Part shown: positions 23,781 to 43,508 of the stretch, in pieces
Numbering within the stretch: the stretch's first letter is position 1
Layout: every line of letters begins with the position of its first letter
DNA from: Candidatus Bathyarchaeia archaeon
Lineage (GTDB): Archaea; Thermoproteota; Bathyarchaeia; 40CM-2-53-6
DNA: 64,000 nt
Assembly: GCA_050013255.1 (NCBI GenBank)
Contig: JBEKFP010000002.1
Coordinates: 256,001 to 320,000, forward strand
Direction: 5' to 3'
Position numbers and translations under genes: made by a program
Notes under the pieces: generated by a model
Database searches by the model: none
Told to the model about the DNA's origin: nothing
The model's input: only the letters and a program-made list of their open reading frames with translations

Positions 23781-23860
23781 TGGTATGCTGGTGCGGGCAG
23801 GCAAATTTGAACCGTCGTCGTTCGTAAAAGTGTGTGTGCGCACCAAAGGTAGCACACACA
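23781..23860. repeat. tRNA-end-like palindromic repeat, composite copy
   Basis: TGG-N5-TGGTGCG...AATTTGAACCGTCGT...GTGTGTGTGCGCACCA-N7-CACACACA; inverted homologue at 28183-28268. Confidence 0.8.
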
Positions 23861-24134
23861 TCGTTAACAGCGTAGTGGCATCTTCGTAGGAACGCGTCTT
23901 TGCTGTATGGTTGAACTCCTATTGTCCCAATCGACTAACTATGATCCTCATATCTTTACAGATCTCACAGTACTTGGTTGGACCATAGTAGGAAGTGGAG
24001 ATGGTAGCGAGATGACCGCAATCTAACGTCACAAGGCATTTCGCTCTACTCAGTTAGTCACCCTCCTTGACAGGATCACGTGTAGGTCCGTGACTCTTTT
24101 TTTGCTCCTCCTACAGATGCTGATTATGATTATC

Positions 24135-24479
24135 TTAACGCCAGTGAGGGTAAGTTACGTAGAATCCTCGTCCACTGGTCGGTGTGGACCATTCTACTTT
24201 GAGGCCTTTCTTCTGCGGAATGTAAACCACATCTCCCGCTTGAACTTCAGTAGTCTTTCCTCCTTCTTTTAGGATAAATGAACCTTCAGTGCAGTAGATG
24301 ACGGCACAATCGTTGTCGTAATCGAACTCAGTGGGTTCTGATTTCTTGATTTCAATTACCCCAGCAGTAAACGGCGCATTCTGCTTTCTGTCAACAACAT
24401 CGACGAGCTTCAGGTCCGTCGCGCCAGCCTCAAATTTCTCAGGCACTATCAAGGATTTCTTGACTTGAACGATTGACAT
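24135..24479 (-). CDS. Cupin, EutQ-like
   Basis: From ATG at 24479: MSIVQVK...FTAGVIEI...YCTEGSF...AGDVVYIP...YVTYPHWR; the longer ORF-track start runs into a repeat. Confidence 0.75.
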   Translation of the reverse strand: MSIVQVKKSLIVPEKFEAGATDLKLVDVVDRKQNAPFTAGVIEIKKSEPTEFDYDNDCAVIYCTEGSFILKEGGKTTEVQAGDVVYIPQKKGLKVEWSTPTSGRGFYVTYPHWR

Positions 24480-24582
24480 GGTAACCGCGAGTGAGGCCGC
24501 CTGCAGATTACTTAAAGCTTTACAACTCGTGGCCTGCCCTTCGACGACCTTTTCTGATTTTAAGAAGCCAAACTGGTAGTTT

Positions 24583-24617
24583 CGTGTGTGTGTGCGCGCA
24601 CCATTAGAACCACACAC
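24583..24617 (+). repeat. GTGTG-CGCACCA-CCACAC repeat copy
   Basis: CGTGTGTGTGTGCGCGCACCATTAGAACCACACAC. Confidence 0.85.
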
Positions 24618-24748
24618 TAGGAAAGACGCTTGATCATCGAACGGGCTTTCACATTAGTTCAAGCCCTAAAGGGGTCCTCAAAAAAGAGGATAGGTTTGTG
24701 AAGATCAGGGGTGGTTGCGCTGGTGTTATTCATGTTAGACGTTTCTGC

Positions 24749-24847
24749 TTAGCTGCATTGTTTGTGGTAGCTCTTCTTCATCAGGAAGCCTTTCTTAACC
24801 TCTTGCCCTGAAGGAATCTCCTTCCCACATTTGGCACAGTTTACCAT
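24749..24847 (-). CDS. 32-aa zinc-finger microprotein (below the ORF-track cutoff)
   Basis: MVNCAKCGKEIPSGQEVKKGFLMKKSYHKQCS*, CxxC...HxxC; GAGGT SD-like element upstream. Confidence 0.7.
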   Translation of the reverse strand: MVNCAKCGKEIPSGQEVKKGFLMKKSYHKQCS

Positions 24848-24964
24848 TACAATACCTCGGGGGTGCCGGTGCTGTCACACTGTATTAAATCGTTCCGGTA
24901 AGCTTGTCCTATCGAGAGTGAACCCCGACCACAAGTATCCGGACGATTCCAAATTTGTAATTCA

Positions 24965-25894
24965 TTATGAATTCGGTGTAGGTTTTCCGCTCCTTTTCTT
25001 GTGACGATACCAGTCGAGGTCTCTTTCATAAGTTGCGTTTGGAAGCATCCTCTTCCATAGATCAGAAATCTTAGCGTCCACTTGGCGGTAGTACTCGTCC
25101 CCTACCCAAAGAAGCTCACGTATTCCTTCCACATCGCAGTGAGGATTCCACGCCTTGTATGCCTTTAGTGTTTGATTGATTATCATGCCGCGTGCATTGT
25201 ATCGGTCCGTCATCAATTTCCTCACGCCTGCCTTTACCAGTCGACTAAGCCCCTCCTCAAGTTCAACCTCAGTCACATATGGTAGCATTGGTGCAATGAA
25301 GACCCATGTCTCCAACCCTGCCTCGTTGAGTTGCCTAACCGCCTCTATTCGCTCCTTGACCGGGGAAGCGTGTGGTTCGAAGATCCGTTGTGCTTCTTGA
25401 TTGAAGGTGGTTATCGTGAAACCTACGTCAACTCTGCTCTTCATGCGTGTGAGCAGGTCGATGTCACGTAGAACAAGAGTGTTTTTGGTTAGAATTGAGA
25501 TGGAGAACTGCGGGTAGTTGGATATGAGTTGGATTGCGCCTCGGGTCAGTTTGTATTTTGCTTCCACTTGCTGATAGGGGTCGCATACGCTGCTTATCCA
25601 AATGCTGCCACTTGGACGTCTTGGGAGTTCTTTAGCTAACACGTCAAGCAGGTTTACCTTCACGTCTACGAAGCTGCCCCAGGGGTCTTGCAGGTGACCG
25701 GAAAAGCGGCGCATGAAGTTGGCGTAGCAATAGACGCAGCCATGCAGGCAACCTGTGTACGGGTTGACCGTGTAATCGTAGCTTAGCCCGCTCTTTGAGA
25801 GAGCCGTCTTGCAGTGTTTCTCCGTGATCTTCGGTCCCGCAGGTTTCACTATTCTCTTCATCGGGTTCCATCTTTGCAACCGGGCGCTTTTCAA
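24965..25894 (-). CDS. Radical SAM protein, spore photoproduct lyase-like family (start probably ATG at 25861)
   Basis: NPYTGCLHGCVYCYA (CxxxCxxC), SSVCDPYQ, ILTK. Confidence 0.9.
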   Translation of the reverse strand: MKSARLQRWNPMKRIVKPAGPKITEKHCKTALSKSGLSYDYTVNPYTGCLHGCVYCYANFMRRFSGHLQDPWGSFVDVKVNLLDVLAKELPRRPSGSIWISSVCDPYQQVEAKYKLTRGAIQLISNYPQFSISILTKNTLVLRDIDLLTRMKSRVDVGFTITTFNQEAQRIFEPHASPVKERIEAVRQLNEAGLETWVFIAPMLPYVTEVELEEGLSRLVKAGVRKLMTDRYNARGMIINQTLKAYKAWNPHCDVEGIRELLWVGDEYYRQVDAKISDLWKRMLPNATYERDLDWYRHKKRSGKPTPNS

Positions 25895-26018
25895 CTAGTT
25901 CTTTCTCCCTATCTTCTCTCTTTTTTTGGTGCAAAACTTGCTGAGCAGTAATCTGAACCGTACTGACTTGGTTCTGTGAACTCGCACCCAATGGCGTTTT
26001 GGATGAACCCAGTAGCGT

Positions 26019-26081
26019 TGTGTGGTACTCATCGTGCGAGCGACTGAATTTGAACTCATGTTTTTTTTGCTACGCGCACCA
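26019..26081. repeat. Degenerate composite repeat copy
   Basis: TGTGTGGTACTCATCGTGCGAGC...AATTTGAAC...TTTT...CGCGCACCA. Confidence 0.6.
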
Positions 26082-26124
26082 TACGTAAGTCCAGACCAAT
26101 AATGATGGAGGGCATTAAGTTCAA

Positions 26125-26475
26125 TCAGACTTGAACTTCAATTACCAAGTTCGGAAGTTTTGTCTGCTTGATGAGAGCTAACCTACGTTCGATGGTCTTG
26201 ATCCTATGAAACATGGAGACCATCGTACGTTGAAAATTCTCGTATTCCGGTGTGCCTTCTTTCTTTTGCTCGCTGAACTCGTGGTCTGCAATTATCTCTC
26301 CAATTAGGAACTTGAATTGCTCGGTGGTTCCATCAAATTGGACATCCACGGTCACCGTGAAACTATGCTTCCAATTTCCATTGGCCGCTGAAATGTTGAC
26401 ATTGTTAAAGACTCGAACTTTCGAGGCACGTTGGTCCAAGATGAGTTTGAATAGATCTTCTAGACTTTGAGACAA
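26125..26475 (-). CDS. Hypothetical protein
   Basis: 116-aa ORF with globular composition. Confidence 0.55.
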   Translation of the reverse strand: MSQSLEDLFKLILDQRASKVRVFNNVNISAANGNWKHSFTVTVDVQFDGTTEQFKFLIGEIIADHEFSEQKKEGTPEYENFQRTMVSMFHRIKTIERRLALIKQTKLPNLVIEVQV

Positions 26476-26808
26476 CGTCCCGTCTATCCGAGAGGTTCGT
26501 TCAAGAACGTGTATCAGCTAACCCGTAAATCAACATCACGGTCAGCCTTTATGGTATGAAATTTGGAAATGCGGCAAGACTGAACTATGCTCAACTAGGA
26601 CACGGAATATCGAACCACGAAAACAGCCGCTAATCATGGTTTGAAGGATTCAGCGAAGAACTGGCGGATGACAAAACGTATGGAGTTTATTGTCTGCTGA
26701 GGGACCTACAGAAAAGCAATAGCTCGCAGCATGCGCGCCAATCATCAAGAAAATAGCTGCAGGCTATGCTTAAAGTAAGACTGAGAAGATAATGCCTGTC
26801 GATTTCAA

Positions 26809-27030
26809 TTGGAAGGTCAGAACACCGCTGTAGTGACCAACGTCATTCCGGTGGGCATACATCAGGACCAATTCTACGACATCCAATTCTACTACGAGAC
26901 GGACCCGAAGAAAACGCCGCAATCTTGTAGGCTTGGGCCAGAAGCCGTCCCATCGGGTATCCATCAGGGCATGCGAGTTCGCGTTAAGGCGATGCTAAGC
27001 ACAGTTCTTGGTCTTGAATTAATCACCTGA
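26809..27030 (+). CDS. Small hypothetical (OB-fold-like) protein
   Basis: 73-aa ORF, beta-rich pattern. Confidence 0.55.
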   Translation: MEGQNTAVVTNVIPVGIHQDQFYDIQFYYETDPKKTPQSCRLGPEAVPSGIHQGMRVRVKAMLSTVLGLELIT

Positions 27031-27130
27031 TGCCACTTCCCTTCGGCGGGCAAGTTGAAAAAACAGGCATACCTAAGGGTGTTGTTATGGTAGGCACAAG
27101 AGACGCCAATGTCTCCAAGCGGTTGGTTTT

Positions 27131-27159
27131 CGTGTGTGCGCACCACCTGACCCACACAC
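27131..27159 (+). repeat. GTGTG-CGCACCA-CCACAC repeat copy
   Basis: CGTGTGTGCGCACCACCTGACCCACACAC. Confidence 0.85.
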
Positions 27160-27220
27160 CACAGGACTGAGCGCCGGATTTTATCATGAGTTCAATCATG
27201 ATGGGTATTTGTGAATTGAC

Positions 27221-28126
27221 ATGCTTGACACTTTGAGGGGATTCTCAGGGTTCATTTCAATCGAAAGAGGATTCATGCTTTGTGCGATATCTATCGCAGC
27301 AACATTTCTATTAGCAGGGAAATTTGCCTGGCAAGAAGCAACTTACGTCGGTCTTCTAGTCTTTTGCGGGTGGAGCGCCGTAGATGCCATAAATAACGTA
27401 TGCGATGCTGACTTGGATACGAAATCCGACGCCTTTAGATCTCAGTACACAAAGAGCCTTGGAAGATCGGGATTAATGCTATGCCTCATCTTTTTTGCGC
27501 TTACCCTCGGTCTAGGTATAGCGACCCTTAGCCCCTTAGTTGTTACATTCATTTTGCTCGCTGGTGTCGCCGGGCTATTGTATTCTGTTCCTCCATTTAG
27601 GTTGAGGCAAACCATATACAAACCTGTAGTAAACTTCTTTGTCGGAGCCTTCCCAATTCTTATCGCGGCCGCCTTTGCCAGTCACTTTTCTGCAAATGCC
27701 TGGACCCTCGTGTTTCTCTTCGGGCTCGCGACCGCGGGCTATAGTTTATGGGGGGACTTAGCGGACTACGCTTCAGATCTAGATAGTGGGGGAAGAACTA
27801 TTCCGATTGTACTAGGCCTCAAGCGAGGGCTCTGTACTACCATCGTAAGTGGCTACTCTCTCTTTCCGCTCATGGCCCTCGTGGGAGTGATGTTTCAATT
27901 GAACATTCTCTACTACCTCGTACTATTTTCCCTAGCAGCCTACCTCTCCATTCGTGTAATTCTAAAGCGCTCACTGCTACTCTCTAGTCCCACAAATGAT
28001 GATGCAATAGAGCTCTTGGGCCAAACTTTGGCAAAAGTTTTCGTTATTATAGCAATAGTACAGACGACGAATCTCATGTTAAGTGCATTTCTGAAGTTAC
28101 AAGGATTTTCCTTCTGGGTGGTCTAA
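27221..28126 (+). CDS. UbiA family prenyltransferase
   Basis: NNVCDADLD, YSVPPFRLR, DLADYASD...RTIP; multi-TM. Confidence 0.88.
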   Translation: MLDTLRGFSGFISIERGFMLCAISIAATFLLAGKFAWQEATYVGLLVFCGWSAVDAINNVCDADLDTKSDAFRSQYTKSLGRSGLMLCLIFFALTLGLGIATLSPLVVTFILLAGVAGLLYSVPPFRLRQTIYKPVVNFFVGAFPILIAAAFASHFSANAWTLVFLFGLATAGYSLWGDLADYASDLDSGGRTIPIVLGLKRGLCTTIVSGYSLFPLMALVGVMFQLNILYYLVLFSLAAYLSIRVILKRSLLLSSPTNDDAIELLGQTLAKVFVIIAIVQTTNLMLSAFLKLQGFSFWVV

Positions 28127-28182
28127 GAAAAGAGTCAGCCAATGCAGTATACAGATGCAGTTTCTCTAACAGGCCTGTTCTT

Positions 28183-28268
28183 CGTGTGCGCGGGTCTAAT
28201 GGTGCGCACACACACACGAAAAACGACGGTTCAAATTACGATGCTCGCACCATTAGTGCCACACACAC
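28183..28268. repeat. tRNA-end-like palindromic repeat, composite copy
   Basis: CGTGTG...TGGTGCGCACACACACACG-AAAAACGACGGTTCAAATT...CTCGCACCATTAGTGCCACACACAC. Confidence 0.88.
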
Positions 28269-28358
28269 AGAAGCCAGCGAGATACCTATCATTAGATTCG
28301 AGAATCGTATCCGTTCCCTAATAGCCCGAGTAATTATGAAGCAAGGCGTGGGATTTGT

Positions 28359-29183
28359 ATGCAGGGGAAAACAGGCGGCAATAAGTCGGCAAGAGTATTT
28401 GCGCTCTTCTTAGTCATCTGCGCCGTTCCAATCTTAACGAGGCTTGTCGAGAACATTCCAATTACCGCAACACAATTGGCCTATTCCCTCCTCAACGGGG
28501 CTATACTAACAGTTTTTCTCGCTTGGCTAGTGCCCAAGATGCGTCTCAGACGCTGGTCACTGACTCTACTGGTCTGGTTGGAGCTCCTGGTCGTTGAGTT
28601 CCTCAACAACTACGTTGAAGCGTATTTCTTCACGACTCGGTACAGCAACCCCGCAGTTCTTGTGCAATCAGTGGCCTCCGCTCTCATTTCCTCCGTGATC
28701 AGCGCGACGGCCGCGGCTCTCTTGCTCGGCTATGGAATTTCAGGAATCACCGTTTCGTTGAAAGAGTACCTGTCGAAAAGGACGAGTAGCTCGTGGATTC
28801 TCCGAATAGCAGTAGGTTCCGTTGCATATTATCCAATCTACTTCTTCTTCGGCCTCTTGATAAGCCCATTCGTTCTGCCCTACTACAACGATCCTTCGTT
28901 TGGACTTCGGATACCCTCTTTCGCGGTGATGATTCCGGTGGAGCTTTTCAGAGGCTTCGTCTACACCCTCGTCCTCCTGCCTCTGCTAGCGACTGTGGTT
29001 GGAGGGAGAACTGCGAAATTCATTGCACTCGCTGCGATGCTCTACATTCCTGGTGGACTCATCACGCTACTGGGAAACCCAGGAATCCCAGCCCCGATCA
29101 TCCCATTCCACGGGGTAGAGATACTGGCTGACTCAATTGTCTACGGATTAGTCCTGTCTCGTATCCTAAGTCAGCCAAAGTGA
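28359..29183 (+). CDS. Multi-pass membrane protein
   Basis: 274 aa, ~8 hydrophobic helices. Confidence 0.75.
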   Translation: MQGKTGGNKSARVFALFLVICAVPILTRLVENIPITATQLAYSLLNGAILTVFLAWLVPKMRLRRWSLTLLVWLELLVVEFLNNYVEAYFFTTRYSNPAVLVQSVASALISSVISATAAALLLGYGISGITVSLKEYLSKRTSSSWILRIAVGSVAYYPIYFFFGLLISPFVLPYYNDPSFGLRIPSFAVMIPVELFRGFVYTLVLLPLLATVVGGRTAKFIALAAMLYIPGGLITLLGNPGIPAPIIPFHGVEILADSIVYGLVLSRILSQPK

Positions 29184-29229
29184 GCTCCTAGCCTCAAAGG
29201 TGGAAGGCTGATTTTCGTCGTGCTGTCTT

Positions 29230-29266
29230 CGTGTGTGTGGTATCAATGGTGCGCACACACACACAC
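29230..29266 (-). repeat. GTGTG-CGCACCA-CCACAC repeat copy
   Basis: CGTGTGTGTGGTATCAATGGTGCGCACACACACACAC (plus strand). Confidence 0.9.
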
Positions 29267-29288
29267 TGAAAACGAGTTCGACCGGGCG

Positions 29289-29735
29289 TCAGAAGATTTC
29301 TAACGTACTGTTCCAAGAACTAGTCTCGATCGTTGCAGTATTATTGAACCAAGACTGGTAGAAAATACTAAACGAATAATCACCGGAGGGTACGTTGTAG
29401 ATGATCGGCGAAATGCTCAGGTAGTATTCTCCGTCTTTAGTGAAATTAGCGGTGAGATTGCACTGTCGGTCCACTAACGGAACTCCGCGATCTCTTAGCG
29501 TCACATTCATTTTCATGGTAAAGGTTGCATTAGGCTGCTTTTCGCCTCTAAATGGACCGGGTCTGATAGAATAGCTAGGCAAAGATGTATTGTCGCATAG
29601 GCCTTGACTATAGTCTCTTACAGGAATGAAAGTTGCATTAACGAAGCTTGACGAGACATTCTCTGGAGAGACGGTGACGTCGAAGACGACTAGCTCAGAA
29701 GCTTTAATCGCCCACTGGAGATTGAGTGGCTTCAT
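29289..29735 (-). CDS. Hypothetical extracellular-type beta-rich protein, possibly N-terminally truncated
   Basis: Many NxS/T sequons but no signal peptide. Confidence 0.5.
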   Translation of the reverse strand: MKPLNLQWAIKASELVVFDVTVSPENVSSSFVNATFIPVRDYSQGLCDNTSLPSYSIRPGPFRGEKQPNATFTMKMNVTLRDRGVPLVDRQCNLTANFTKDGEYYLSISPIIYNVPSGDYSFSIFYQSWFNNTATIETSSWNSTLEIF

Positions 29736-29741
29736 CTTCTG

Positions 29742-30185
29742 CTAGTCGTTGATGCTCTTCGCGAGGTTCGCCGAACACTTCTTCAGGGTGGCTACTGCGG
29801 CGCTCTCCTCTTCTTCGGTGATTCCCCGCATCATTTCCTTGCGCATGGCCGCCCCTATGTCCGGGACAGTCTTCCACCGCGCAGAGCCCTTGGGAGTGAG
29901 CTTCAGGTAGTTAGCGCGACGGTCTTTCTCACTGGAGGTCCTGTCCAACCATCCCTTCCTGACGAGACCATCTACGACTATGGCCATGCTTCCAGATTCT
30001 ATGCCAAGGTCCTCCTGAAACGCCTTCTGGGAGATCCGCCCCGCTCCGTTGACCTGATAGAGGACGGACCAGGAGCTCCGAGTCAGACCGAATGGTTTGA
30101 GGAGCCTGCTAATCTTGACGGTCACGTCATGGTTTATCACTTTCACCCAGTGACCGAGATACCTGACCTGAGGACTGGCTTCCAT
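29742..30185 (-). CDS. MarR family regulator
   Basis: GLTRSSWSVL...LVRKGWLDR...DRRANYLKLT; divergent from the epimerase gene. Confidence 0.9.
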   Translation of the reverse strand: MEASPQVRYLGHWVKVINHDVTVKISRLLKPFGLTRSSWSVLYQVNGAGRISQKAFQEDLGIESGSMAIVVDGLVRKGWLDRTSSEKDRRANYLKLTPKGSARWKTVPDIGAAMRKEMMRGITEEEESAAVATLKKCSANLAKSIND

Positions 30186-30287
30186 GCAAGGCCGGTTGGT
30201 TTCTCGCCTCTATATCTAATTGCTTTACTCGAATTTACTTTATACAATGCATTTTATAGCCGCGCTAACTACCTCCTAGTCTAGAAA

Positions 30288-31139
30288 ATGAACGTCCTGG
30301 TAACGGGAGCAACTGGAAAAGTAGGCAGCAGATTAGTTCCGTCTCTGCTCAGCGGCGGTCATTCCGTACGAATACTTGTGCGAAGAACCGATGACGAAAC
30401 CGTAAGGAAGCTCAAAGCCAAAGGGGCAGAGACTTTCATCGGCGATATCATGCAGCCTGAGAGCTTGCAAGAAGCCCTTGACGGAGTCGATGCGATCGTG
30501 CACCTTGCAGCTTTCTTTCGCAGTCAAGATGCAGAAAAGATCAAAAGTGTCAATGAAATCGGCACGAAAAATATAGCCGAAGCGGCTTCGCAAATTAACA
30601 CAGGGATTCGTTTTGTTTTTTCAAGCACAAGTAATGTTTACAACAATGAGACCGCGCCTGGCCTAGAAAGTGATCTCGTTAGTCCAGCGGCTGCCTATCC
30701 CGCGAGCAAGGTAGCTTCGGAAAAACTCTTGCTTGGCATGCACGCGGCGAAACAACTTGACGTTTGCATCCTGCGCTTCGTTTTCGTATATGGCGCCGGG
30801 GATCCGCATCTACCAGAATCGATTCCGTTTTTTGAGCGGTTGAGCCTGCATCCGGCATATAGGTTGCATCTTGTACACCATTTGGATATAGCACAAGCCG
30901 TGAAGCTGGCAATGAGCGTTTCTGCCATGGGCGGTGAGATATACAACGTCGCCGATGACTCGCCGATTACTCTACAAGAGGTCATCCAACTGATGGGTCA
31001 AACCGCGAAGCTTGCAAATCCAGCGACTCCTTTGACAAACGCGTGGAGCGGCCTCGTTAGCGCTGGAAAAATTCGAAGTCTCGGATTTCGTCCGTTGGTT
31101 CCTTCTTATTACGCAGCGAGCGACCTGAATATACTGTAG
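30288..31139 (+). CDS. NAD-dependent epimerase/dehydratase (extended SDR)
   Basis: VTGATGKVG, HLAA, YPASK. Confidence 0.9.
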   Translation: MNVLVTGATGKVGSRLVPSLLSGGHSVRILVRRTDDETVRKLKAKGAETFIGDIMQPESLQEALDGVDAIVHLAAFFRSQDAEKIKSVNEIGTKNIAEAASQINTGIRFVFSSTSNVYNNETAPGLESDLVSPAAAYPASKVASEKLLLGMHAAKQLDVCILRFVFVYGAGDPHLPESIPFFERLSLHPAYRLHLVHHLDIAQAVKLAMSVSAMGGEIYNVADDSPITLQEVIQLMGQTAKLANPATPLTNAWSGLVSAGKIRSLGFRPLVPSYYAASDLNIL

Positions 31140-31236
31140 TCGTCAAAATATCTCTTGCGCGATAGGGTTGCCATGCACGCGAAGTTCGAAGGAGGTCGTC
31201 AGCATCCTAGCAGAAGGTGAAAGTGGCATGTGAAGT

Positions 31237-31316
31237 CGTGTGTGTGGTATCAATGGTGCGAGCACCAGAAATTGAACTGAGGCATCTTTGTGTGTGGTAT
31301 TAATGGTGCGGCCGCC
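31237..31316 (-). repeat. Two tandem repeat copies joined to tRNA-like 3' ends
   Basis: GTGTGTGTGGTATCAATGGTGCGAGC...TTGAAC and TGTGTGTGGTATTAATGGTGCGGCCGCC; the last 13 nt are identical to the tRNA-Gly 3' end (48558-48570). Confidence 0.85.
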
Positions 31317-31649
31317 AAGAACCATGATTCAAACGTGGTTCCCACGGTTCGGCCTAGGTCACAAATCTCAGAAGATCGTAGAATAGTAACTGCAAACATT
31401 TTTGCTTTGTTGTGGGCTCGAAATCTCATTAAAATCACGGGCATCTCAACGGCGTAGTGATCAAGACCTGAAAGAGCGGAATCTACGTTCTCATTTCTCA
31501 AACGATTTGGCTATATGCTATCTGCGAATGCCTTGAAGACCTTCTAGACAGGCCTAAACGAAAATCAAAGTGCGGAATCCGCACGTGCCTTTCTATTAGC
31601 CGCGGCAACATTCATTGAAAGTTTCCGAAAAGTGAAATGACTATAATCC

Positions 31650-34631: not shown

Positions 34632-34639
34632 GGGAGTGA

Positions 34640-34964
34640 GAAATTCTCCGAGCTTCCGTCACGATTTGGGTTCTCAGTTGAATACACAGACTCGGTTGCC
34701 AACTTGCGGTATTATGAACCCGATTTCGTTGCTGTCTTGGAAAATGGTGAGCATTACCTCATTGAGACAAAAGGGCGTGAGGACCCGGACGTACCCCACA
34801 AGGATCGGGCAGCTAAACTTTGGTGCGAGTACGCAACCGACCTAGCTCAAATACGGTGGCAATATCTGAAGGTCCCTCAGCAAGACTTCAAGCGATTGGA
34901 GCCCAACGAGTTTTCGGACCTGAGCGTGTTCAAGTACGAGCAACAAACCTTACCCGCTGACTAA
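34640..34964 (+). pseudogene. C-terminal nuclease-domain fragment of a type III restriction (Res-like) enzyme
   Basis: FSVEY...YEPDFV...LIETKGRED...KDRAAKLWC (PD-(D/E)xK); helicase part absent; begins at the repeat. Confidence 0.7.
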
Positions 34965-35058
34965 TAGTATTTGGGAAGCTCCAACGGCAGACGAATCACA
35001 CGTCATAGGATACCCAGCCAACTCCTAAAACAAGCTCTTCATGTACGGGTGTGGTTAG

Positions 35059-35742
35059 GTGAGGTTGGTCACAATGGATAACATTAGGGTTACAGTCGGC
35101 GGACTCATGAGCGTAGACGGTAAGATAGCGCCCGCTGACAGAGTTGGAAGGAAGTTCTCAAGATTTATGACGGGGCGGCATCAAAGGATGTTACACACTA
35201 TCAGATCCAAGGTGGACGCGATCGTGGTAGGTGTCAATACTGTCATAACCGATAATCCTTCGCTGACTGTCAGGGAGGTGAAAGGGAAAAACCCTCTCAG
35301 AGTTGTACTCGACAGCAACGCTAGAACGCCATTGGAATCAAAGATTCTTGGTAGGGAAGCCTCAACCGTAATCGCAGTCACGAAGCATGCCCCTGAAGGC
35401 AGGGTCGAGCTTCTGCGAAGGAAGGTGGAAGTTCTCGTGTTGGGCGGCTCCCAACGCGTTGACTTGAAGGAATTGTTGGGTGAACTAAAGAAGCGCGGTA
35501 TACATTCAGTTCTAGTTGAAGGTGGAGGAGAAGCCCGCTGGGGCTTTTTCAAGGAGGGACTCGTGGACGAACTCTTCGTCTGGGTCGTACCTTACATCTG
35601 GGGAGGAAGAGATGCACCAACGCTTGTCGATGGTGAAGGTTTCCTTCAAGAAGCGGACGCAATACCGTTAAAACTCAAGAGCACCAAAGTAGTCGATAAG
35701 ACATTAATTCTCTCGTTCCGTGTAAATGGTAATCACGTCTGA
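35059..35742 (+). CDS. RibD C-terminal-type pyrimidine reductase (archaeal Rib7/ArfC-like)
   Basis: MSVDGKI, DAIVVGVNT, DNPSLT, LVEGGG, LVDEL. Confidence 0.88.
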   Translation: MRLVTMDNIRVTVGGLMSVDGKIAPADRVGRKFSRFMTGRHQRMLHTIRSKVDAIVVGVNTVITDNPSLTVREVKGKNPLRVVLDSNARTPLESKILGREASTVIAVTKHAPEGRVELLRRKVEVLVLGGSQRVDLKELLGELKKRGIHSVLVEGGGEARWGFFKEGLVDELFVWVVPYIWGGRDAPTLVDGEGFLQEADAIPLKLKSTKVVDKTLILSFRVNGNHV

Positions 35743-35951
35743 GTCATTTTCTTGAGCAACGAACTTTCAGTAGGGCCTCTCTTGTCTCGATACATCATGT
35801 AAGTCTTGATGAGCATATCCAGGAAATCATTTATCGAAATATCATTGTTGGTATCACCCGCAAATAGGTCTCTGGCTTTTTTTAGTTGGGTGAGCCTTTC
35901 AGTTTCGAAGGTTACAGTTACGGTTTCATCTGTTACCCTTGACAAACACAT
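35733..35951 (-). CDS. Small ribbon-helix-helix-like protein
   Basis: TVTVTF strand followed by two helices (ISINDFLDMLI). Confidence 0.55.
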   Translation of the reverse strand: MCLSRVTDETVTVTFETERLTQLKKARDLFAGDTNNDISINDFLDMLIKTYMMYRDKRGPTESSLLKKMTQT

Positions 35952-35955
35952 CCAC

Positions 35956-37119
35956 CTACGGCATATTCAACGAACCTAAAATGGACTCAAGCTTCTCCAT
36001 TTTTCCGCCACTTAAAGCAATCAACTTGCGTAATTCCTCTAATGCCTTTCCTTCGTCAACTGTCTGACAGGCCATTTCAAACCCATCTCTTATATCCTTC
36101 ACGTCATCGGCCGCGTAGATTATCGAGGCGGCATTCAAGAGGATGAGGTCTCTGCGCGCGCTTCTGTCTGAACCAGATAGTACCCCGACCGTGACTGCCG
36201 CATTCTCGACGTGACTGAGACGAGCAAGGACATCTTCAATCCTTCCTCGCTTTACGCCAACATCTTCTGGAAGAATCGTGTAAGTGTTTATGGAACCATC
36301 AGATTTCAATTCCGATACAACAGAATTGCCAAGGTTAGAAAATTCATCTATCATTACGTCCTCTGTCTTTCCATGTCCCAAGACCACCAAAGCTCTTTCG
36401 TAACCACAATTGCGTAGAACTGTAGCAACCTTCTCTGTGAAGGGCTTGCTCACGCCCCTGACTTGGCGTCTTATTGAAAACGGATTGAGGGCGGTCGCTA
36501 TCATCAGCCTAAGCGAATACAGCAAGGGCATCGCAGCGGACACAGATTCTTTGTGTCCCAATTCTATGAGTGGACCCATCCATGGATAGACGCCTTCAGA
36601 GGCCCACACTGCGACCCTGATTTTCTCTACACAGCTCTCGACAACATCACGAGGCACGTTCACGTTTATCCCCAAGCAGTCAGCTAAATCGGTTGATCCA
36701 GTCTTTGACGAGAAAGCTCTTGCACCACTCTTGAGGGCGTACGAACCAGCGGCAGCGGCAGCTATCACCGCCGGAGTTGTTACGTTTATGGTCGGCGCAG
36801 TATCACCGCCAGTTCCACCTGCTGTCACTAAGGGTTTGTCCACATTGAACCGGAACCTGAACTTCTTTGTCGCTTCCATGGCCGCAGCCATTGATGCAAG
36901 TTCGTCTATGGTCGGTTCTTTGATGGTCAACCCGCCGAAGAACGCAACCAACAATTCAGTAATGTCGGGCGATCGATCAGTCAATCCGTCCAGAATGGTT
37001 TTTGTGACAAATTCCGTCTCGTCGGGCTTAAGGTCTTCACGTCTTGACAGTTTGTCGAAGACCTCGCGCAATCTATTCTTCAGGTTCGGTTCCGTCGGTG
37101 TTCCAACAGAGTTCTGCAT
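35956..37119 (-). CDS. Anthranilate phosphoribosyltransferase-like protein (divergent TrpD homologue)
   Basis: GGTGGD, TINVT, SSKTGSTD, LNP, DEFS, LLNAA; KSGAR replaces the usual KHGNR. Confidence 0.8.
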   Translation of the reverse strand: MQNSVGTPTEPNLKNRLREVFDKLSRREDLKPDETEFVTKTILDGLTDRSPDITELLVAFFGGLTIKEPTIDELASMAAAMEATKKFRFRFNVDKPLVTAGGTGGDTAPTINVTTPAVIAAAAAGSYALKSGARAFSSKTGSTDLADCLGINVNVPRDVVESCVEKIRVAVWASEGVYPWMGPLIELGHKESVSAAMPLLYSLRLMIATALNPFSIRRQVRGVSKPFTEKVATVLRNCGYERALVVLGHGKTEDVMIDEFSNLGNSVVSELKSDGSINTYTILPEDVGVKRGRIEDVLARLSHVENAAVTVGVLSGSDRSARRDLILLNAASIIYAADDVKDIRDGFEMACQTVDEGKALEELRKLIALSGGKMEKLESILGSLNMP

Positions 37120-37137
37120 TGCTTAACCTCAACCGAC

Positions 37138-37677
37138 TCAAAGAGCTGCGCCGGTAATCTGAGCCCGAAGGATTCCTCGAAGAATGGCATAAGAAATCAA
37201 CGTGGACGGCACCAATTGAAGTGTAATGTAGATCGGCAATGCAACTAGGTAGAAGGTGAAAGGCAATCCGAGAGCCACGACAATCACAACGTAGGTCATC
37301 GGGATGTCCACGAGGGCGCAAGTGAGACTCAAAAGCAAGAGCCTTGTATGAAGCTTCATCCTCGGATGGAGCTTGGAAAGGACTACAGAAACAGTACCCA
37401 CCACAACCGCGAATACTAAATTAACGAAAGGCCATAGCCACGAAAGCGGATTTGCGGCCGTGATCAATCCGAGAAAAGCTTGAACCTCCGTGGTGATGAT
37501 AGCTCCGAGAGGCCCGAATATGGTCGCGGAGACTAGCAACCACGTGTATGTGTTTATGTATCCAAGGGGTGTGGCATTTCCTCCCGTAATGGCAGAGTCA
37601 GCTCTTTCGGCGAACGAGGCTATGACCCCTGCGACCACCCCCAAAACCATCGCAATCATTGCATCTCTCATTCGCAT
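37138..37677 (-). CDS. ECF transporter S-component-like membrane protein
   Basis: Hydrophobic 179 aa with ATIFGPLGAII motif. Confidence 0.7.
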   Translation of the reverse strand: MRMRDAMIAMVLGVVAGVIASFAERADSAITGGNATPLGYINTYTWLLVSATIFGPLGAIITTEVQAFLGLITAANPLSWLWPFVNLVFAVVVGTVSVVLSKLHPRMKLHTRLLLLSLTCALVDIPMTYVVIVVALGLPFTFYLVALPIYITLQLVPSTLISYAILRGILRAQITGAAL

Positions 37678-37751
37678 GCGAGTTCCTCCATTGAACTAAA
37701 CAATCATGTGAAAGACATTTACGTTATTTAGTAGGATTCCCTTTCTAAATA

Positions 37752-38312
37752 TTGAGCGCTTCAGCAAGGTTCCCTTGGATCCTGTCATACTTCCTGTTTG
37801 GCTTTTGGCCGGCGCTCCTAACTTCCGCGCTCGCTTCAGTGCTGATCAGTTTCGGCATGACAGGGATCGCCGGAGCTGGGATCAAGTTTGTTGCGACGAT
37901 GCCCCAGTTCCTTGCCTTCGCGTTGTTCGCCATGGCCTTACGTTATACGAGTTCAATTTCCTTTAGACGACTTCTGTTCTTCATACCTGTCGCCGGAGTG
38001 GCCATTGTGGTAAGGGTTCTTCTCTCCATAAGCGCAGGCACGTACATATTTGGGCCCTTGTTCTTCAACACTTCTCCTGATCTCATGCTGCAGGTTTTTC
38101 CGCCATGGCTCTATGTTTTGCTGAACATACCGCAAGCGGCTTTCAGCGATATGAGCGTACTGGCGGAGGCTCGGATCAAGATCCCGGCCGTAGTTAGACT
38201 GGCACATCAGCTTAGAGACTATGGCTTCGAATTTGAGCGTGTTCCTCTTACGGTTGACGATGCAGCCCTACAGATATCCCGAAACATGAAGAGGCAGGGA
38301 ACAGATGGCTGA
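37752..38312 (+). pseudogene. Chimeric relic: ECF S-component fragment joined to an EcfA C-terminal tail
   Basis: FLFGFWPA...GAGIKFVAT TM part, then FSDMSVLAEARIKIPAVVRLA...PLTVDDA. Confidence 0.55.
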
Positions 38313-38520
38313 TGTTGCAGTAGAAACCGAAAATTTGTCGTATGCCTATCCTAATGGGACCACAGGGCTTCGTGATGTCACTGTGATTCTGGAAAGAGGC
38401 AAGCTCATCTCGATCATGGGGCCTAACTGCTCCGGGAAGAGTACTTTCGCGAAGCAGCTCAACGGCTTGCTTAGGCCGACGAAAGGCTTGGTGAGAGTCT
38501 GCGGAATGGACAAGAGGTAC
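38305..38520 (+). pseudogene. N-terminal fragment of an ECF ATPase (EcfA)
   Basis: NLSYAYP, GPNCSGKST, LNGLLRPTKG, then similarity is lost. Confidence 0.75.
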
Positions 38521-38559
38521 GTCGTGTGCGTACATGACTCGAAGGTCCGGTCCGCTTGG

Positions 38560-38734
38560 ATTGAGTTCAACGACTATAGAGCCAATTCTCACGGGCTATC
38601 AGATTTACCACAACTATATTCGACCGCACGAAGCACTAGAGGGCAAAACACCCGCAGAAGTTGCAGGAATTCAAATCAGAGGAAAAGACAGATGGATGAC
38701 CATAATTCAGAACGCAAAAAGTAGATCAGTCTAA
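38560..38734 (+). mobile_element. IS6-like DDE transposase C-terminal fragment
   Basis: ILTGYQIYHNYIRPHEALEGKTPAEVAGI...WMTIIQNA. Confidence 0.75.
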
Positions 38735-38988
38735 TTCGAGTTCTCTGTTTTCCGAGAAATACTCCAGAATCGCTGATTATCCGTTCTCCGTAGATACTTC
38801 CACCAGAATAGCAGTTGTATTGTAAGAACGAAAAACGTAAGACCAGTAGTTAACGCTATGACTTCAAAGAAATTAGCTACGAAAGTTTGCATGTGACGTG
38901 AAGCAGTATAGAAAACAGCGGCATTAATGAAAATAACGGTAGACAAAACTCGTAAGAATAGGTGTTCTTTGCTCGTTAATCCTTTCAA
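38731..38988 (-). CDS. Small two-TM hypothetical protein
   Basis: Two hydrophobic helices. Confidence 0.5.
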   Translation of the reverse strand: MKGLTSKEHLFLRVLSTVIFINAAVFYTASRHMQTFVANFFEVIALTTGLTFFVLTIQLLFWWKYLRRTDNQRFWSISRKTENSN

Positions 38989-39000
38989 CTTTCTTCCCTC

Positions 39001-39216
39001 CTAACGCACATTGAGTACGCCGTATCTCCAGAGGACGAACCAAATGTTAATGAGGAGCGGCACCAGCGTAACAACAATGACCAAGAACGTCAGTACGCCA
39101 TAGCCGAATCTCCTTGTCTTCACGTGGTTTATTGATATCAGGTAAAATATGATTGCGTCGGTAAGAGCAATAATGATGATTGCACGAAGGGTTAAGTCAT
39201 AAAGTAACGAAAGCAT
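39001..39216 (-). CDS. Small two-TM hypothetical protein
   Basis: GGAGGTGA SD upstream; two hydrophobic helices. Confidence 0.65.
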   Translation of the reverse strand: MLSLLYDLTLRAIIIIALTDAIIFYLISINHVKTRRFGYGVLTFLVIVVTLVPLLINIWFVLWRYGVLNVR

Positions 39217-39574
39217 TTAACTCACCTCCTCTCGTTTCGGCTTTGATGGATTCGATTGACGAGGCTTGACAACTTTCTTCCCTCGTTAGGCTAAGTAAGG
39301 AGCCACGCTCATACAGGTTCCCCTAGTTTTCACGAATCGAAACATGGTTCCGTGTGCAAAGGGCTAGAAACGGTAAGATCGAATCCCACCAAACGAAAGT
39401 AAACAGCCCAAAGCACCAAACGACAACGACGCGTTACCCTCTATGGTCGTTATTATCAGTCTAAGTTACGATTGGTAAATTCCTCCCAAGGCTTTACTAC
39501 GAATCAGGGAACCCCTCTGAAACGGCTCAAAATCAGGAGAGCACGTTCAAAATAAGGCTGTTAAACCCATGATA

Positions 39575-39605
39575 TGGTGGGGCCGGTGGGATATGAACCC
39601 ACGAC
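39575..39605 (-). other. Isolated tRNA 3'-half fragment (att-site-like)
   Basis: GTC-GTGGG-TTCATAT-CCCAC-CGGCCCC-A-CCA: T-arm, acceptor 3' strand and CCA, with no 5' half. Confidence 0.75.
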
Positions 39606-39862
39606 AAGGAGTTATCGAAAAAAGCCGGGGACAAGAAAGTTTTCTTCACGGTCACCGTCAACATTGCCTCACGCAAAATACAGAACTTGCAGGAGTACTG
39701 AACAGTCATTCGAAGCCTGTGCAGTACGTGGCTCATTTGTGATGTTTGCGCTTTGCGTTTTCGTGTTTGAGCTTGTGCGTAGTTAGATCGTGGAACTGAA
39801 CGGTTCTGTTGCATACTGGACAAGTTATTTTGGACATATCTTGTCAAAGGATGAGGAGATAT

Positions 39863-40090
39863 TTACGAACTTGCATTTTGGATGATTGTTAGCCATCTGT
39901 CTTTCTTTGCCTCAAATCTGAATCACTGCGGCTTCTGCTGGCGTTTGTCCTTCTAGTGCCATGTGCGGTCTTACGTAATCGTGGTTGGTTTGCATGCTTT
40001 TCAGAATCGATGTATCCATCTTCTTTAAGTTACGAGTAACTTTCTCTCGGTCGCGGATTTCTCCTCATTCGTTCCATCTTGGTATTGTGA
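39863..40090 (-). mobile_element. Second IS6-like transposase C-terminal relic (frameshifts, stop)
   Basis: NTKMER/EIRDREKVTRNLKKMDTSIL...HDYVRPHMALEGQTPAEAA. Confidence 0.75.
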
Positions 40091-40225
40091 TGTCGCTCTA
40101 GTTGGCTTCAGGTCGCTTAACCCGTCCAGTTCGAATAGATCTTTAGCTTCCCGGATCGCCCATTCAAAATGACGCCAACTCACATTTATCCCGAAATGTG
40201 GAGTCATCGAACTTCCGCATGAAAA

Positions 40226-41071
40226 CTAGGTGGCAATAAGGTGCGAGAGGATTCCTGTGATTGGAGTCTTTTCCGCCCCTTCCAGGATGGTGAGCCTGCC
40301 TGTCTTCCTCCTAAGCGAGAGTTGGATTTGTCCCCTGAAACCCCTCACTCTGGCATCGCGAACCTCAACTCGGTCGCCCTCGGAGATTGTTCCTATCTGA
40401 TTGTTCCATACAGAGAGAGGGATTTCTCCGGTACCGTCGGAGAGCGTAACGGAGCAGACCAAGAGGGGGACCCCGTCCCTCGAGGTCACAGCTCTCACTT
40501 CTGATTTCTTGACCACAACCGCCTTGAAAGATACGCTCTTCAACCCTAACCTCATATCTCTAATGCTCCTCTCACCCTTCGCATCAAGTTTTTTTGCTTC
40601 GCGTTCTTGAATGGCATCAATGTAGCGTGAAAATCGTTCCGGCGGATTCCTCAACATTTCAACCGAATCATTAGGGATGTCCGCTTGCGCCAACCACTTG
40701 CCCTCAACTGAGAACATGTACGTTGAAGAAGCTGCACCGTGTTGACGCGTTTGAATAGAAACCTTTCCACACCGGGAGTTACCGCGGTTTCGTGCAACTA
40801 GAATCGAGGCACGAAGAAGATTGGGCTTTAGATTATGCTTCTTTGTGATCTGAAGTAGATAGATAAAGTCTCTGTCCAGACCGCGAATCCCTGTTAGGTT
40901 CCTTAGCGCAGTTAAGATATTTCGACTCTCAATCAATATGACGCCATGAGTAATAAAGCGACCCCCAATAATTGGGGCTGATTCTCTGTCCTCCTTCAGA
41001 GATCTGCTTGTCTCAAGAGCACCACGTCTGCAGTCATTCTTCGCGCGCGCAAGGCACGCTCGCTTACTCAA
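40226..41071 (-). CDS. Protein with C-terminal single-stranded DNA-binding OB fold (start probably further downstream)
   Basis: IRDMRLG...TLSDGTGEIPLSVWNNQ...EGDRVEV...FRGQIQL. Confidence 0.8.
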   Translation of the reverse strand: MSKRACLARAKNDCRRGALETSRSLKEDRESAPIIGGRFITHGVILIESRNILTALRNLTGIRGLDRDFIYLLQITKKHNLKPNLLRASILVARNRGNSRCGKVSIQTRQHGAASSTYMFSVEGKWLAQADIPNDSVEMLRNPPERFSRYIDAIQEREAKKLDAKGERSIRDMRLGLKSVSFKAVVVKKSEVRAVTSRDGVPLLVCSVTLSDGTGEIPLSVWNNQIGTISEGDRVEVRDARVRGFRGQIQLSLRRKTGRLTILEGAEKTPITGILSHLIAT

Positions 41072-41399
41072 TGAGATACACGGTCTCAGCGCCTAATCGC
41101 AGGGCATGCGAATTTTGGCTACGCAACATCAAACTGGGGCGCCTCCCAGTTTCGAGGGTACACTACTGCCAGCGAATGCCTGGGCGTACAGAAGACGGAT
41201 CCGTTGGCCTGGGAAGGGAAAGGAAGACTCCTCATGGTCTTCCAAAACCTCCACGCCATCTCCGACTCCTTCGACATCTGCAAATTCAACGCGTAGCTGT
41301 TCAGAAGAGGCGTACGAGCAGGGCGTATGGTTGTGATTCTAAAACGGGCAGGAGAAAAAGGGGAGTGTGGACCCTGGTTAACCAGAGTCCTAGTTCTAG

Positions 41400-41495
41400 G
41401 GCTCACCAGACTAAGGAAGGAGCTTGTCGGCGTTCCTAATCCAGTGACGTCGTCGTATCCTGGCGTTGTCGCTAGGCTGAGTGTCTGGTCCATTG
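41400..41495 (-). pseudogene. Extreme C-terminal fragment of an S53 (sedolisin) peptidase
   Basis: TTPGYDDVTGLGTP motif in isolation. Confidence 0.55.
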
Positions 41496-42046
41496 TTCGC
41501 AGCCGATAGTATCGTAATCCGGTCTCATTTCTTCAAGCATCCTCCTTAGTGGTCAGGTACCCCACAACCTCAACTTATCTTTAATTTGTTTGGGTGTCAT
41601 CATTTTTTGAGTCACCTTTCTTCTCAAAAGAATCTCCAACCCACCGCCCAACCGCCATACAAAATGTGTTGTCCTCGGTTTCGATGTGTTGGTGTGGGCC
41701 TTCATATTCTTTGCAGCTTGCGACCTGAACATACTTACGCTGCTTCGCTGCACTCAATGTGCTAGTTCCTCCCGAATCTGCGCTACAACCAAGAAAGATA
41801 ACTTGAACAACCTTCTGATTCGAAGTAACTCTTCGGCCTCTTCTGGTTTTCTGGTCAGTCTGTACATTGCATATAGAACAGAACTAACTACGCTGTCTTG
41901 GAAGTAAAGGTTCTTCGATGAGCTGACAGTTAACAGCCGAAAAAGCTGAGAGACATCAGCTATCAAGTTAACGTTACCCTCCGCCCGTTATCGCGAGCGT
42001 CGCCGCGAGCCTTCGAATCATAATCTGGAACCTAGCTAGGATCGAG

Positions 42047-42340
42047 ATGGGCGCTAGACTGAATCGGAGTGCTAACGATCTATTCGCATTCTATCTTACG
42101 CATCTGAATGGTGAGGAAGCGACAATTCTGCCTGCCATGTGGAAGCATTTCACAGATGATCAGCTCACTGCAATGCGCAGTAACGTTGAGACAAACATGT
42201 CGATGGAGCGATATGCTGAATGGATGAGTTGGATGTTCCCATCGCGCAACATTAACGAACTGACTGGCATGTTCATGGGATTGAAGAAGGCACCGGCACC
42301 TGTTCGCGAAAATATGTCCCGTATAGCAGAAAAAGGCTCT
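42047..42340 (+). pseudogene. Hemerythrin-domain protein fragment
   Basis: YLTHLNGEEATILPAMWKHFTDDQL; both ends appear missing. Confidence 0.55.
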
Positions 42341-42347
42341 GTTGCAT

Positions 42348-42731
42348 CTATGGGACACGCCCTTTCCCGTTTTTCGCGTTGCTTTTCGGGACATCCTCGG
42401 CTGAAATACGCTCTAAGAGAATCCGCTTTATTTTGTCTTCATCAAGTTCAATCTCGACCCGTTCAATCTTTATTTTCTGAACTTTCCCACTCAACTTCTT
42501 GAATAGCAATTTAGCCGCGAGTTCCGCGGCGAAAGGGGTTGCAATTTCGATTGCTAACTTCACGGTCTCAGGATATGCAAATCCTTCACGAATGATGATT
42601 TCCTCGTATGTTAGGACACAATCCTTGGCAATTTCCTTGGTCATCCCCATGGTAGTTTGTTGTGTTGCGAATAGATCGCATACGAGTAGGAATCCATGCA
42701 GTGCTTCTAACTCAACCTTAATCTTCAACAA
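42348..42731 (-). CDS. Hypothetical protein
   Basis: 127-aa ORF overlapping the upstream gene's stop. Confidence 0.5.
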   Translation of the reverse strand: MLKIKVELEALHGFLLVCDLFATQQTTMGMTKEIAKDCVLTYEEIIIREGFAYPETVKLAIEIATPFAAELAAKLLFKKLSGKVQKIKIERVEIELDEDKIKRILLERISAEDVPKSNAKNGKGRVP

Positions 42732-43030
42732 TCTGCAACAGAGCCCTGCAGATTCTTCCTAAGTCTGCTTCGAGTTAGTGGCGGCGTCTGGTTTCTTGCT
42801 TCCTTGATCTCCGTCTTGATTCTTTCCCGCGTTAGTCCCGCTGACCTAGCGCTCCTGAAAATTTTTTGTCTCAACTCTTTGCAGGAATCTCTCAGTGCAA
42901 GATAGCGCAGTGATTTTTCGCCGTTGCCATTCTTAATTTCTTCGAACAGGTCGTCACACGCGTTTTCCCGTTCAGCCAAGTCATGGATTCTGTTGTGGAA
43001 CTCATGAAAACCTGTCGTCATCACAATCAC
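42725..43030 (-). CDS. Hypothetical helical protein
   Basis: 101-aa ORF; TTTAAA ~25 nt upstream. Confidence 0.5.
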   Translation of the reverse strand: MIVMTTGFHEFHNRIHDLAERENACDDLFEEIKNGNGEKSLRYLALRDSCKELRQKIFRSARSAGLTRERIKTEIKEARNQTPPLTRSRLRKNLQGSVADC

Positions 43031-43482
43031 AGCCTCATTGGGCTGGTCGGTTTAAAGTGCTTAGGCCAACTAGAATCGCATAAACAGGTGAATCATTGTT
43101 TCAGGTTGCCGTGAAAGCTGCTATCAGGTGTGAACTTTGCATCACCCCTTTTTTTCCTTCTCAGCCTTCCCCCCTCAACCACTCAATATTGATGACGCAT
43201 ACAAGATAGTCAAGCAAAAGGTCCATCTCTGGGGAACCGCAAGTAGTTGGTGGGCGCGTAAGAATGGAGAGAGTTGTTCCTGGGTGTCCAGGCTGCGGTG
43301 GAAAAATGATTTTCTATTCCAGTGACGCTTATTCGGAACATTACATCTGTCCGGCTTGCGACCGGTTTCTGGGGATTCCAAGACCGATTGACTTCTTCCG
43401 TAAGTGAGTCCCGCCATCATTGGATCTAAAGGTCTTGCACCGCAGGCCGGACATGATTCCCGTAACGTCATGCCTTTGTGCA

Positions 43483-43508
43483 TGTGGTTCCCTTGGTGCG
43501 CACACACG
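43483..43508 (-). repeat. GTGTG-CGCACCA-CCACA repeat copy
   Basis: TGTGGTTCCCTTGGTGCGCACACACG (plus strand). Confidence 0.7.

Follow-up and report, generated by a model that had tools for sequence, protein, structure and literature searches.

The window analysed here is a stretch of 64,000 nucleotides from Candidatus Bathyarchaeia archaeon (assembly GCA_050013255.1, contig JBEKFP010000002.1, positions 256,001 to 320,000 of the forward strand), in which an accessory region carries many copies of a repeat that resembles a tRNA 3' end. The original prediction, made from the window alone, was that these repeats bracket modules of one to three genes and act as the tyrosine-recombinase sites of a gene-capture array. 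We find that they form a real family of junctions of predicted casposase type around non-autonomous cargo units, which are casposon-like yet differ with respect to the polymerase, an own cas1 and the end base. Each site is a 14-bp core, CGCACCA with seven variable bases, followed by a CACAC element tip, and at many sites a tRNA-like landing pad precedes the core. The genome (2.46 Mb on three contigs, C1, C2 and C3) was scanned as a whole; it is called G000 here, and the genomes compared with it carry further G numbers.

The array begins with S1 (23782-23813, minus strand; leader 23796-23813, core 23782-23795), apparently an empty landing pad set 43 bp inward from an element tip. At C1:721329 and C3:226062, the sequence behind occupied sites matches the one that follows S1. 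S2 (23830-23861, plus strand, core 23839-23852) is a junction of tip, core and tip, and after it lies a unit with an EutQ-like cupin gene (23853-24596) whose two flanking direct cores do not match. The core of a second tip-core-tip junction, S3 (24597-24610, plus strand), is followed by a unit that holds a small zinc-finger open reading frame (ORF) and a radical SAM gene (24611-26024; gene 24965-25894, minus strand). At 26025-26088 the pad and core of S4 (26025-26056, minus strand) stand back to back with a degenerate core, S5 (26075-26088, plus strand). Junction S6 (27132-27160, plus strand, core 27139-27152) and the core of S7 (28193-28206, minus strand) face each other across a UbiA-family prenyltransferase unit (27153-28192, plus strand; gene 27221-28126), and their cores do not match. 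A tip and pad of 39 bp connect S7 to the core of S8 (28246-28259, plus strand; whole block 28193-28259), which faces the core of S9 (29240-29253, minus strand) across a membrane-protein unit (28260-29239, plus strand; gene 28359-29183, no Pfam family). The UbiA and membrane genes thus each lie between inward-facing sites, as predicted. Cupin, zinc-finger, radical SAM and UbiA assignments are from Pfam.

S9 is also the distal copy of a perfect 14-bp target duplication. Its proximal copy is the core of S10 (31247-31260), which together with its pad spans 31247-31278 on the minus strand. Between the two copies lies an enzyme-less unit of 1993 bp (29254-31246) that encodes a 148-aa ORF, a MarR protein and an SDR protein within CACAC/GTGTG tips. 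At S11 (31297-31316, minus strand) a core and tip are joined to an att-like 13-bp repeat (31304-31316) of a second element, a decayed tRNA-Gly-integrated island of tyrosine-integrase type (31311-48557) with 13-bp direct repeats of the tRNA end at its borders. Inside this island lie S12 (34586-34606, plus strand), a tip-core junction without a far-side tip, S13 (34618-34631, minus strand) and junction S15 (43480-43508, minus strand, core 43487-43500). The repeat copy noted earlier at 34615 corresponds to S13; it does match the core, in degenerate form, and as a site it is possibly a chance occurrence. The island ends at a multi-intron tRNA-Gly(CCC) (48558-48710, minus strand), the natural target whose end the pads imitate. 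This gene, with several non-canonical introns, was missed by ARAGORN and Rfam.

The CGCACCA core was found at all 13 of the positions named in the original prediction, at one of them with a single mismatch. A pattern of the core, six bases and CCACACAC, allowing up to two mismatches, had 10 matches in the window against 0.09 expected, and all lie within 23839-43500. Over the whole genome, a first matrix scan gave 86 hits, compared to 1-5 in base-shuffled genomes, and after refinement there were 93 sites, grouped into 23 clusters. The core pattern is present in 22 of 22 genus relatives (reversed-pattern controls, 0-1). The wider scan that had been suggested as a check therefore shows ~90 copies in this genome and further ones in every relative. 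Two genomes outside the family also carry site copies, many or several as in the genus relatives, and in a search of GTDB with the exact pad pattern Bathyarchaeia predominate among the matches listed. Full site arrays also occur on contigs labelled Methylomirabilota and Nitrospiraceae (L232, L199); the genes of L232 look archaeal, making mis-binning the likely cause and transfer a possible one.

Scoring the sites of other genomes placed the tip at an offset of 14 from the start of the core in 180 of 216 cases. The stretch beside CGCACCA, earlier given as a variable 5-6 nucleotides, is therefore variable as described, and it is seven nucleotides long. On the far side of the core most sites continue as CACACAC; on the near side, 44 sites have GTGTGTG and 41 have the tRNA-like pad. 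Because of this arrangement, we read the palindrome as two element tips facing each other across a core. The inverted GTGTG/CACAC arms proposed originally are thus present at about half of the sites, and elsewhere the pad takes the place of the left arm. In a position table of the 41 pads, a T-loop motif from -17 to -9 and GC at -3/-2 are kept while the bases between them vary, consistent with the earlier suggestion that the sites derive from a tRNA 3' end; the table contains no GTTRRRY core of the attC type. At -9, 34 of the 41 pads have a T where tRNA genes have a C. Pads may also lie within elements, as 13 of 40 sit 28-51 bp inside a tip. The dominant tips end in GTGTG or GGCGG, with GGGG...CCCC ends as a minority class, and the terminal inverted repeats measure ~25 bp on the cas1-bearing element of C1, whereas the units of the window have tips of only ~9-10 bp.

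A core of this kind, if duplicated at the target, predicts the order pad-core-element-core after insertion behind a pad, and we scored identical variable bases by the polarity of each pair. In this genome, cores were identical in 12 of 37 pad-to-tip pairs and 1 of 31 tip-to-pad pairs, in 9 of 150 inverted pairs and in 4.2% of pairs between clusters. At 111 loci of other genomes the corresponding values were 9 of 71, 1 of 63, 7 of 268 and a background of 1.6%. Since pairs within a cluster are not independent, the p-values (Fisher, 0.004 for this genome and 0.019 for the others) are indicative only. The core is most likely a target duplication and not a crossover spacer, and the inverted arms would be the transposon tips of neighbouring elements.

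Particular loci show the same register. A Cas1-less element of 5.2 kb (L151, C1:716105-721311) with canonical GGGGATAT ends starts at core+14 behind a pad; it has a 13/14 duplication and 45-bp inverted ends of the GGGG type, with the pad and register seen at other sites. Ends like these lie near a divergent casposase group (~42% identity) in G017, which suggests that two casposase clades may share the pads. Three identical cores stand in a row at C1:1352968-1357163, as they also do in G014 and G019. Of the elements in this genome whose outer duplications match, most enclose inner sites with unrelated cores, several of them in both orientations. At the natural target, the orthologous tRNA-Gly(CCC) genes of G006, G011, G015 and G021 are followed by seven bases and a CACAC tip, while most other relatives lack the tip. 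For the window, an element from 28207 to 31296 with an 11/14 duplication was considered; it is possible but uninformative, as both of its cores are near the consensus.

The units themselves recur in other species, while the EF-2 and ProRS proteins of the compared genomes are 77-97% identical. G004 has a 95% copy of the cupin unit, reversed and between cores matching at 13 of 14 positions, and the radical SAM unit has a 97% copy in G014. An 82% copy of the UbiA unit in G021 sits between direct cores instead of inward-facing ones, and the membrane-protein unit has 79-84% copies in G011 and G021. Part of the MarR/SDR unit (30047-31246), which in the window has its perfect duplication behind the S10 pad, has a 99% copy in G019 that ends at the tip and adjoins a different core. 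The S12 end likewise recurs with other cores in G013, G017 and G020. Overall, the cupin, UbiA and SDR units are 82-99% identical in other species, next to different cores and often in the opposite orientation. We conclude that the core is not part of the module. That the sites delimit mobile modules of one to three genes in accessory DNA, and that flanking gene content changes at them between genomes, agrees with the original prediction. Its GH130 and glycosyltransferase module fared less well: the GH130 block is 95-97% identical in G011, but it lies between outward-facing sites inside a different element, and the glycosyltransferase assignment is weak (Pfam E 0.067).

We next consider the enzyme. 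The genome contains two solo cas1 genes, both inside elements with such tips and matching direct cores and 2.6-3.6 kb from the sites. The Cas1 protein on C1 matches the casposase 6OPM over residues 4-402 (E 4e-74), compared to 6e-24 for the best CRISPR Cas1, and both of the genome's Cas1 proteins are predicted casposases. No Cas2 gene was found in the genome. The cas1 elements of G002, G004 and G014 also have these tips and matching cores, so that cas1 stands between such tips with perfect duplications in four genomes. DNA polymerase B was looked for in the cas1 elements and not found: PF00136 hits occur only on C2, away from them, PF03175 gave none, and the ten large ORFs of the two elements include no PolB. 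Among the large ORFs of the C1 element we saw no other transposase family. The presence of cas1 was tried as a predictor of site number and is a weak one, as genomes without detectable cas1 have many sites.

The closest known relatives are the Family 2 casposons of Methanosarcina mazei (MetMaz-C1 and MetMaz1FA1A3-C2; 6OPM; PMC4779613, PMC6977970, PMC10359463). As here, these duplicate 14 bp from CGCA at a tRNA 3' end, have an upstream leader motif and terminal inverted repeats, insert in either orientation and reuse their target in tandem; their casposase depends on CGCA, on leader bp 12-17 and on the 4 bp that precede CGCA (PMC6977970). Tandem casposons (PMC4779613) and an engineered mini-casposon (PMC10359463) have been published, the latter cas1-less and moving in trans in vivo, as the enzyme-less units described here would. 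In contrast to the M. mazei elements, the units here are natural, 0.6-5 kb long and for the most part cas1-less; the cas1 elements yielded no PolB, the tips are 3'-G, and many element ends carry a landing pad of their own. Moreover, there are ~90 junctions of mixed orientation per genome as opposed to one or two elements.

AciBoo-C1 of Aciduliprofundum boonei (PMC5137440, PMC6614799) also targets a tRNA 3' end, with TCAAAT(C) in the same register as here, and its GGGG...CCCC ends are shared by the minority class. Its casposase reads TCAAATC 8 bp upstream of the duplication and needs C at -3/-4 (PMC6614799). Unlike that element, the dominant tips here lack C at -3/-4, and the target is tRNA-Gly-like, not tRNA-Pro. 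The positions conserved in the pads are those that casposases read, which supports the casposase reading. CRISPR arrays share the Cas1 chemistry, and runs of repeat, insert and repeat from leader-proximal insertion are common to both, as in the three identical cores in a row on C1 and in G014 and G019; the inserts here, by contrast, are tip-bounded genes instead of spacers, no Cas2 was found and the repeats differ between arrays.

Taken together, these findings lead us to propose, with a probability of about 0.85, that the repeats are junctions made by a family-2 casposase, a solo Cas1 acting in trans. The enzyme would read a TCAAAT-type leader and CGCA at a tRNA 3' end, as other casposases do in vitro and as the motif match here indicates, and would then insert DNA with short inverted tips, duplicating 14 bp; the duplications are present in the sequence, and the catalysis is deduced from them. 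The majority of units lack cas1 and hold between one and three ordinary genes, and they are most likely small enzyme-less units stacked at tRNA-like landing sites and swapped between species. With a pad inside the tip, each insertion could bring a new target. Any outer pair of tips might then be mobilised as a composite that takes inner junctions along, whichever way they face, and rejoins one end of an inner unit, and this would account for the inward- and outward-facing pairs with non-matching cores around the UbiA, membrane-protein and GH130 genes. The array presumably began on tRNA-Gly(CCC) and was later moved 17 kb by an unrelated tyrosine-integrase element, as judged from relatives.

This proposal has the marks of Family 2 casposons on its side: a casposase-type solo Cas1 with a C-terminal extension (in trans), a CGCA duplication at a tRNA-like end, a leader motif and terminal inverted repeats. 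Several observations weigh against it. There is no cas1 within the 64-kb window and none inside its units; the own PolB of Family 2 was not found, and ends of the 3'-C kind occur in a minority class only. No casposase was found in G016 and G018 (96-98% complete, 31-36 sites), and G011, G034 and G036 have casposase fragments only. Here the dominant tips have a 3'-G where characterised casposases work with 3'-C ends (PMC6614799), and tip recognition would thus have to differ from that of known casposases. In the window, only the MarR/SDR unit has a perfect duplication and the other units have none retained. Most of them would need the composite step, the least secure point of the model; elsewhere in the genome there are composites whose outer duplications are perfect, and their role in the history of the window is deduced. 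Contigs from four sequencing runs reproduced 26167-31347 unbroken and without differences (two whole, two from ~26855), and they contained no strain-level empty site, circle or inversion of window units. The unbroken contigs argue against frequent shuffling in the sampled runs, though contigs drop rare variants, and they also mean that the mixed orientation of the sites is not an assembly artefact. Joints between sites with sides of 21-40 nt, examined in the contigs as products of excision or inversion, are best read as other repeat copies.

On this reading, the target chemistry of casposases seems to lie behind dozens of small cargo units in each genome across a genus of soil and peat archaea, without a polymerase and mostly without cas1, and casposases would, if so, be agents of ordinary gene transfer. 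Casposons have been described as rare and large, with an invariable DNA polymerase (PMC6452270). Our literature searches, which covered subscription journals thinly, found nothing linking casposon with Bathyarchaeia or casposase with Bathyarchaeota; among the papers listed, none dealt with natural non-autonomous casposons by title or abstract, nor did we find natural Cas1-less stacks with self-carried pads. The window contributes tips that end in 3'-G, the use of one pad by two classes of tip, a pad that seems to be empty, and competition between two enzyme systems for a single tRNA end. If the proposal is true, the arrays offer natural runs of leader, repeat, insert and repeat in which to study the origin of CRISPR arrays, as well as a short, transferable landing pad with which multi-kilobase cargo could be inserted site-specifically.

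A broader extrapolation is a Cas1-driven gene-exchange network across the lineage, in which enzyme-less units bring along tRNA-mimic pads of their own, so that arrays would grow and recombine into composites each time a casposase comes by, and useful genes move between Bathyarchaeia species. We regard this as a tentative, minority possibility; it would amount to a counterpart of integrons that runs on the chemistry of CRISPR adaptation, and to a present-day model of how casposons gave rise to CRISPR. A related extension, which keeps the same chemistry, supposes that host selection maintains the pads to collect and exchange beneficial genes. The pads do keep only the positions that are read, most of them have a T at -9 that departs from tRNA genes, the cargo is metabolic and regulatory, units cross species at 95-99% identity, and there are ~90 sites per genome. 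However, cas1 lies inside mobile elements rather than at a set locus, several near-complete genomes lack it, we saw no promoter or fixed orientation as in integrons, pads serve selfish spread as well, and much of the cargo is fragmentary. Overall, host-maintained capture seems rather unlikely.

It is improbable that another transposase or target-selector protein uses the tips and pads while the cas1 elements merely share the hotspots. The 3'-G tips and the site-rich genomes without cas1 would fit such an enzyme. Against it, cas1 recurs between these very tips with perfect duplications in four genomes, the duplication length and pad register equal those of casposase biochemistry (14-bp duplications for M. 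mazei; PMC6977970), and no rival transposase family appeared in the large ORFs of the C1 element.

We consider it very improbable that the sites are of the Xer or integrase type proposed originally, with modules excised, inverted or captured by a tyrosine recombinase in the manner of dif modules or integron cassettes. In pdif (Xer) modules and integron cassette arrays, small cargo lies between short sites and is exchanged between genomes, with the enzyme acting in trans. Symmetric sites here do look like arm, spacer and arm, inverted pairs bracket single genes, the genome has three tyrosine integrases, and the site at 31304 overlaps an att-like repeat. Nevertheless, only about half of the sites are symmetric, the others having a pad in place of a left arm, and direct pairs are as common as inverted ones. 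Inverted partners do not share their variable centres (9/150 and 7/268), and no register of arms and spacer that we tried gave matching ones. Adjacent sites are direct in 19 cases, inward in 17 and outward in 12, neither uniform nor alternating as the analogy to cassettes or dif modules would have it. In place of an attC site there is no GTTRRRY core, orientation is mixed, and the core changes with the genome, so that one module has different cores in different species. In contrast to pdif modules and integrons, the sites here fit transposition with target duplication, not conservative recombination, and a core outside the module, and the polarity of the duplications largely refutes the recombinase model. 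The three integrases, all at tRNA ends, lie 20-58 kb from any site and score 52-78 bits against a XerA cut-off of 220, below the IntI cut-off as well; no tyrosine integrase was found in G018, G006, G007, G012 and G020, some of them incomplete genomes and all with sites. Finally, non-mobile repeats, such as regulator binding sites or REP-like elements, would explain the high copy number, intergenic position and partial palindromes, and are scarcely credible, as interspecies homology ends at the tips, core duplication is polarised, and the filled and empty tRNA ends at one register already refute them.

The tyrosine integrase of the window (3097-3969, minus strand; region 3097-4077) belongs to a separate element beside a tRNA-Arg, and the 30-bp att repeat of that element is found at a distance of 9.4 kb, immediately outside the left edge of the window. 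It is the nearest to the array, at 20 kb, and no integrase lies within 31311-48557. The original prediction had noted no cognate recombinase inside the island it described. Islands that target tRNA genes through tyrosine integrases have att cores at the tRNA 3' end. The stretch 31311-48557 fits this type: 31304-31316 repeats the last 13 bases of the tRNA-Gly at 48558-48570, the stretch has this direct repeat of 13-14 bp and no inverted ends, and both borders of the 17-kb stretch recur in relatives. In G002, G003, G017 and G019, a tyrosine integrase gene stands no more than ~500 bp beyond the tRNA-side end; this genome's island lacks one next to tRNA-Gly. At another tRNA-Gly, the site is filled in G004 and empty in G000. 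On these sequence comparisons, 31311-48557 is a second, decayed element of predicted tyrosine-integrase type, separate from the site family, and of the site at 31297-31316 no more than the left half is accounted for by a tyrosine integrase. A casposon tip at 31311 was ruled out: 13-14 bp are shared with the tRNA end, there is no inverted partner, and the partner end leads to an integrase.

The S11 core and tip probably sat on tRNA-Gly before they joined the repeat of the second element, and, from the arrangement in relatives, the array was probably displaced 17 kb from tRNA-Gly by it; G007 has the same arrangement, over 3 kb. An empty island was sought by synteny with ProRS, EF-2 and the amidohydrolase as anchors. 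Relatives do not preserve the order of genes and offered no close match to the amidohydrolase, and hence no whole-island empty site was obtained. The island's cargo comprises GH130, the glycosyltransferase-like ORF, RibD, a TrpD-like gene, ABC-transporter fragments, an extra CDC48 and a DEAD helicase. Integrase-less relatives of the island carry varied cargo (in G004 a 555-aa ORF, phospholipase D-like by eye; in G014 nine genes), which points to a second non-autonomous cargo family on the same tRNA.

Some further features deserve mention. Within the island, the extra CDC48 and DEAD-box helicase (44291-48166) appear mobile, being up to 95-97% identical across species, compared to 76% for the genome's other CDC48 copy. 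A block of RibD-like, TrpD-like and membrane genes (35021-37689) has a 95% copy in G017 that is bordered by two direct cores; here no clear sites flank the block. Right behind S12, 34640-34964 is a fragment that by eye resembles the C-terminus of a restriction-type nuclease, and a 103-bp inverted repeat of another kind (71%; 38607-38709 and 39883-39985) has parts that recur in the genome and its relatives. The amidohydrolase (21617-23638) has no match at E 1e-60 in the 22 genus relatives, and the accessory region reaches left of S1. A further att-like copy of the tRNA-Gly end lies at C2:243062 of this genome, 13 kb left of the window.

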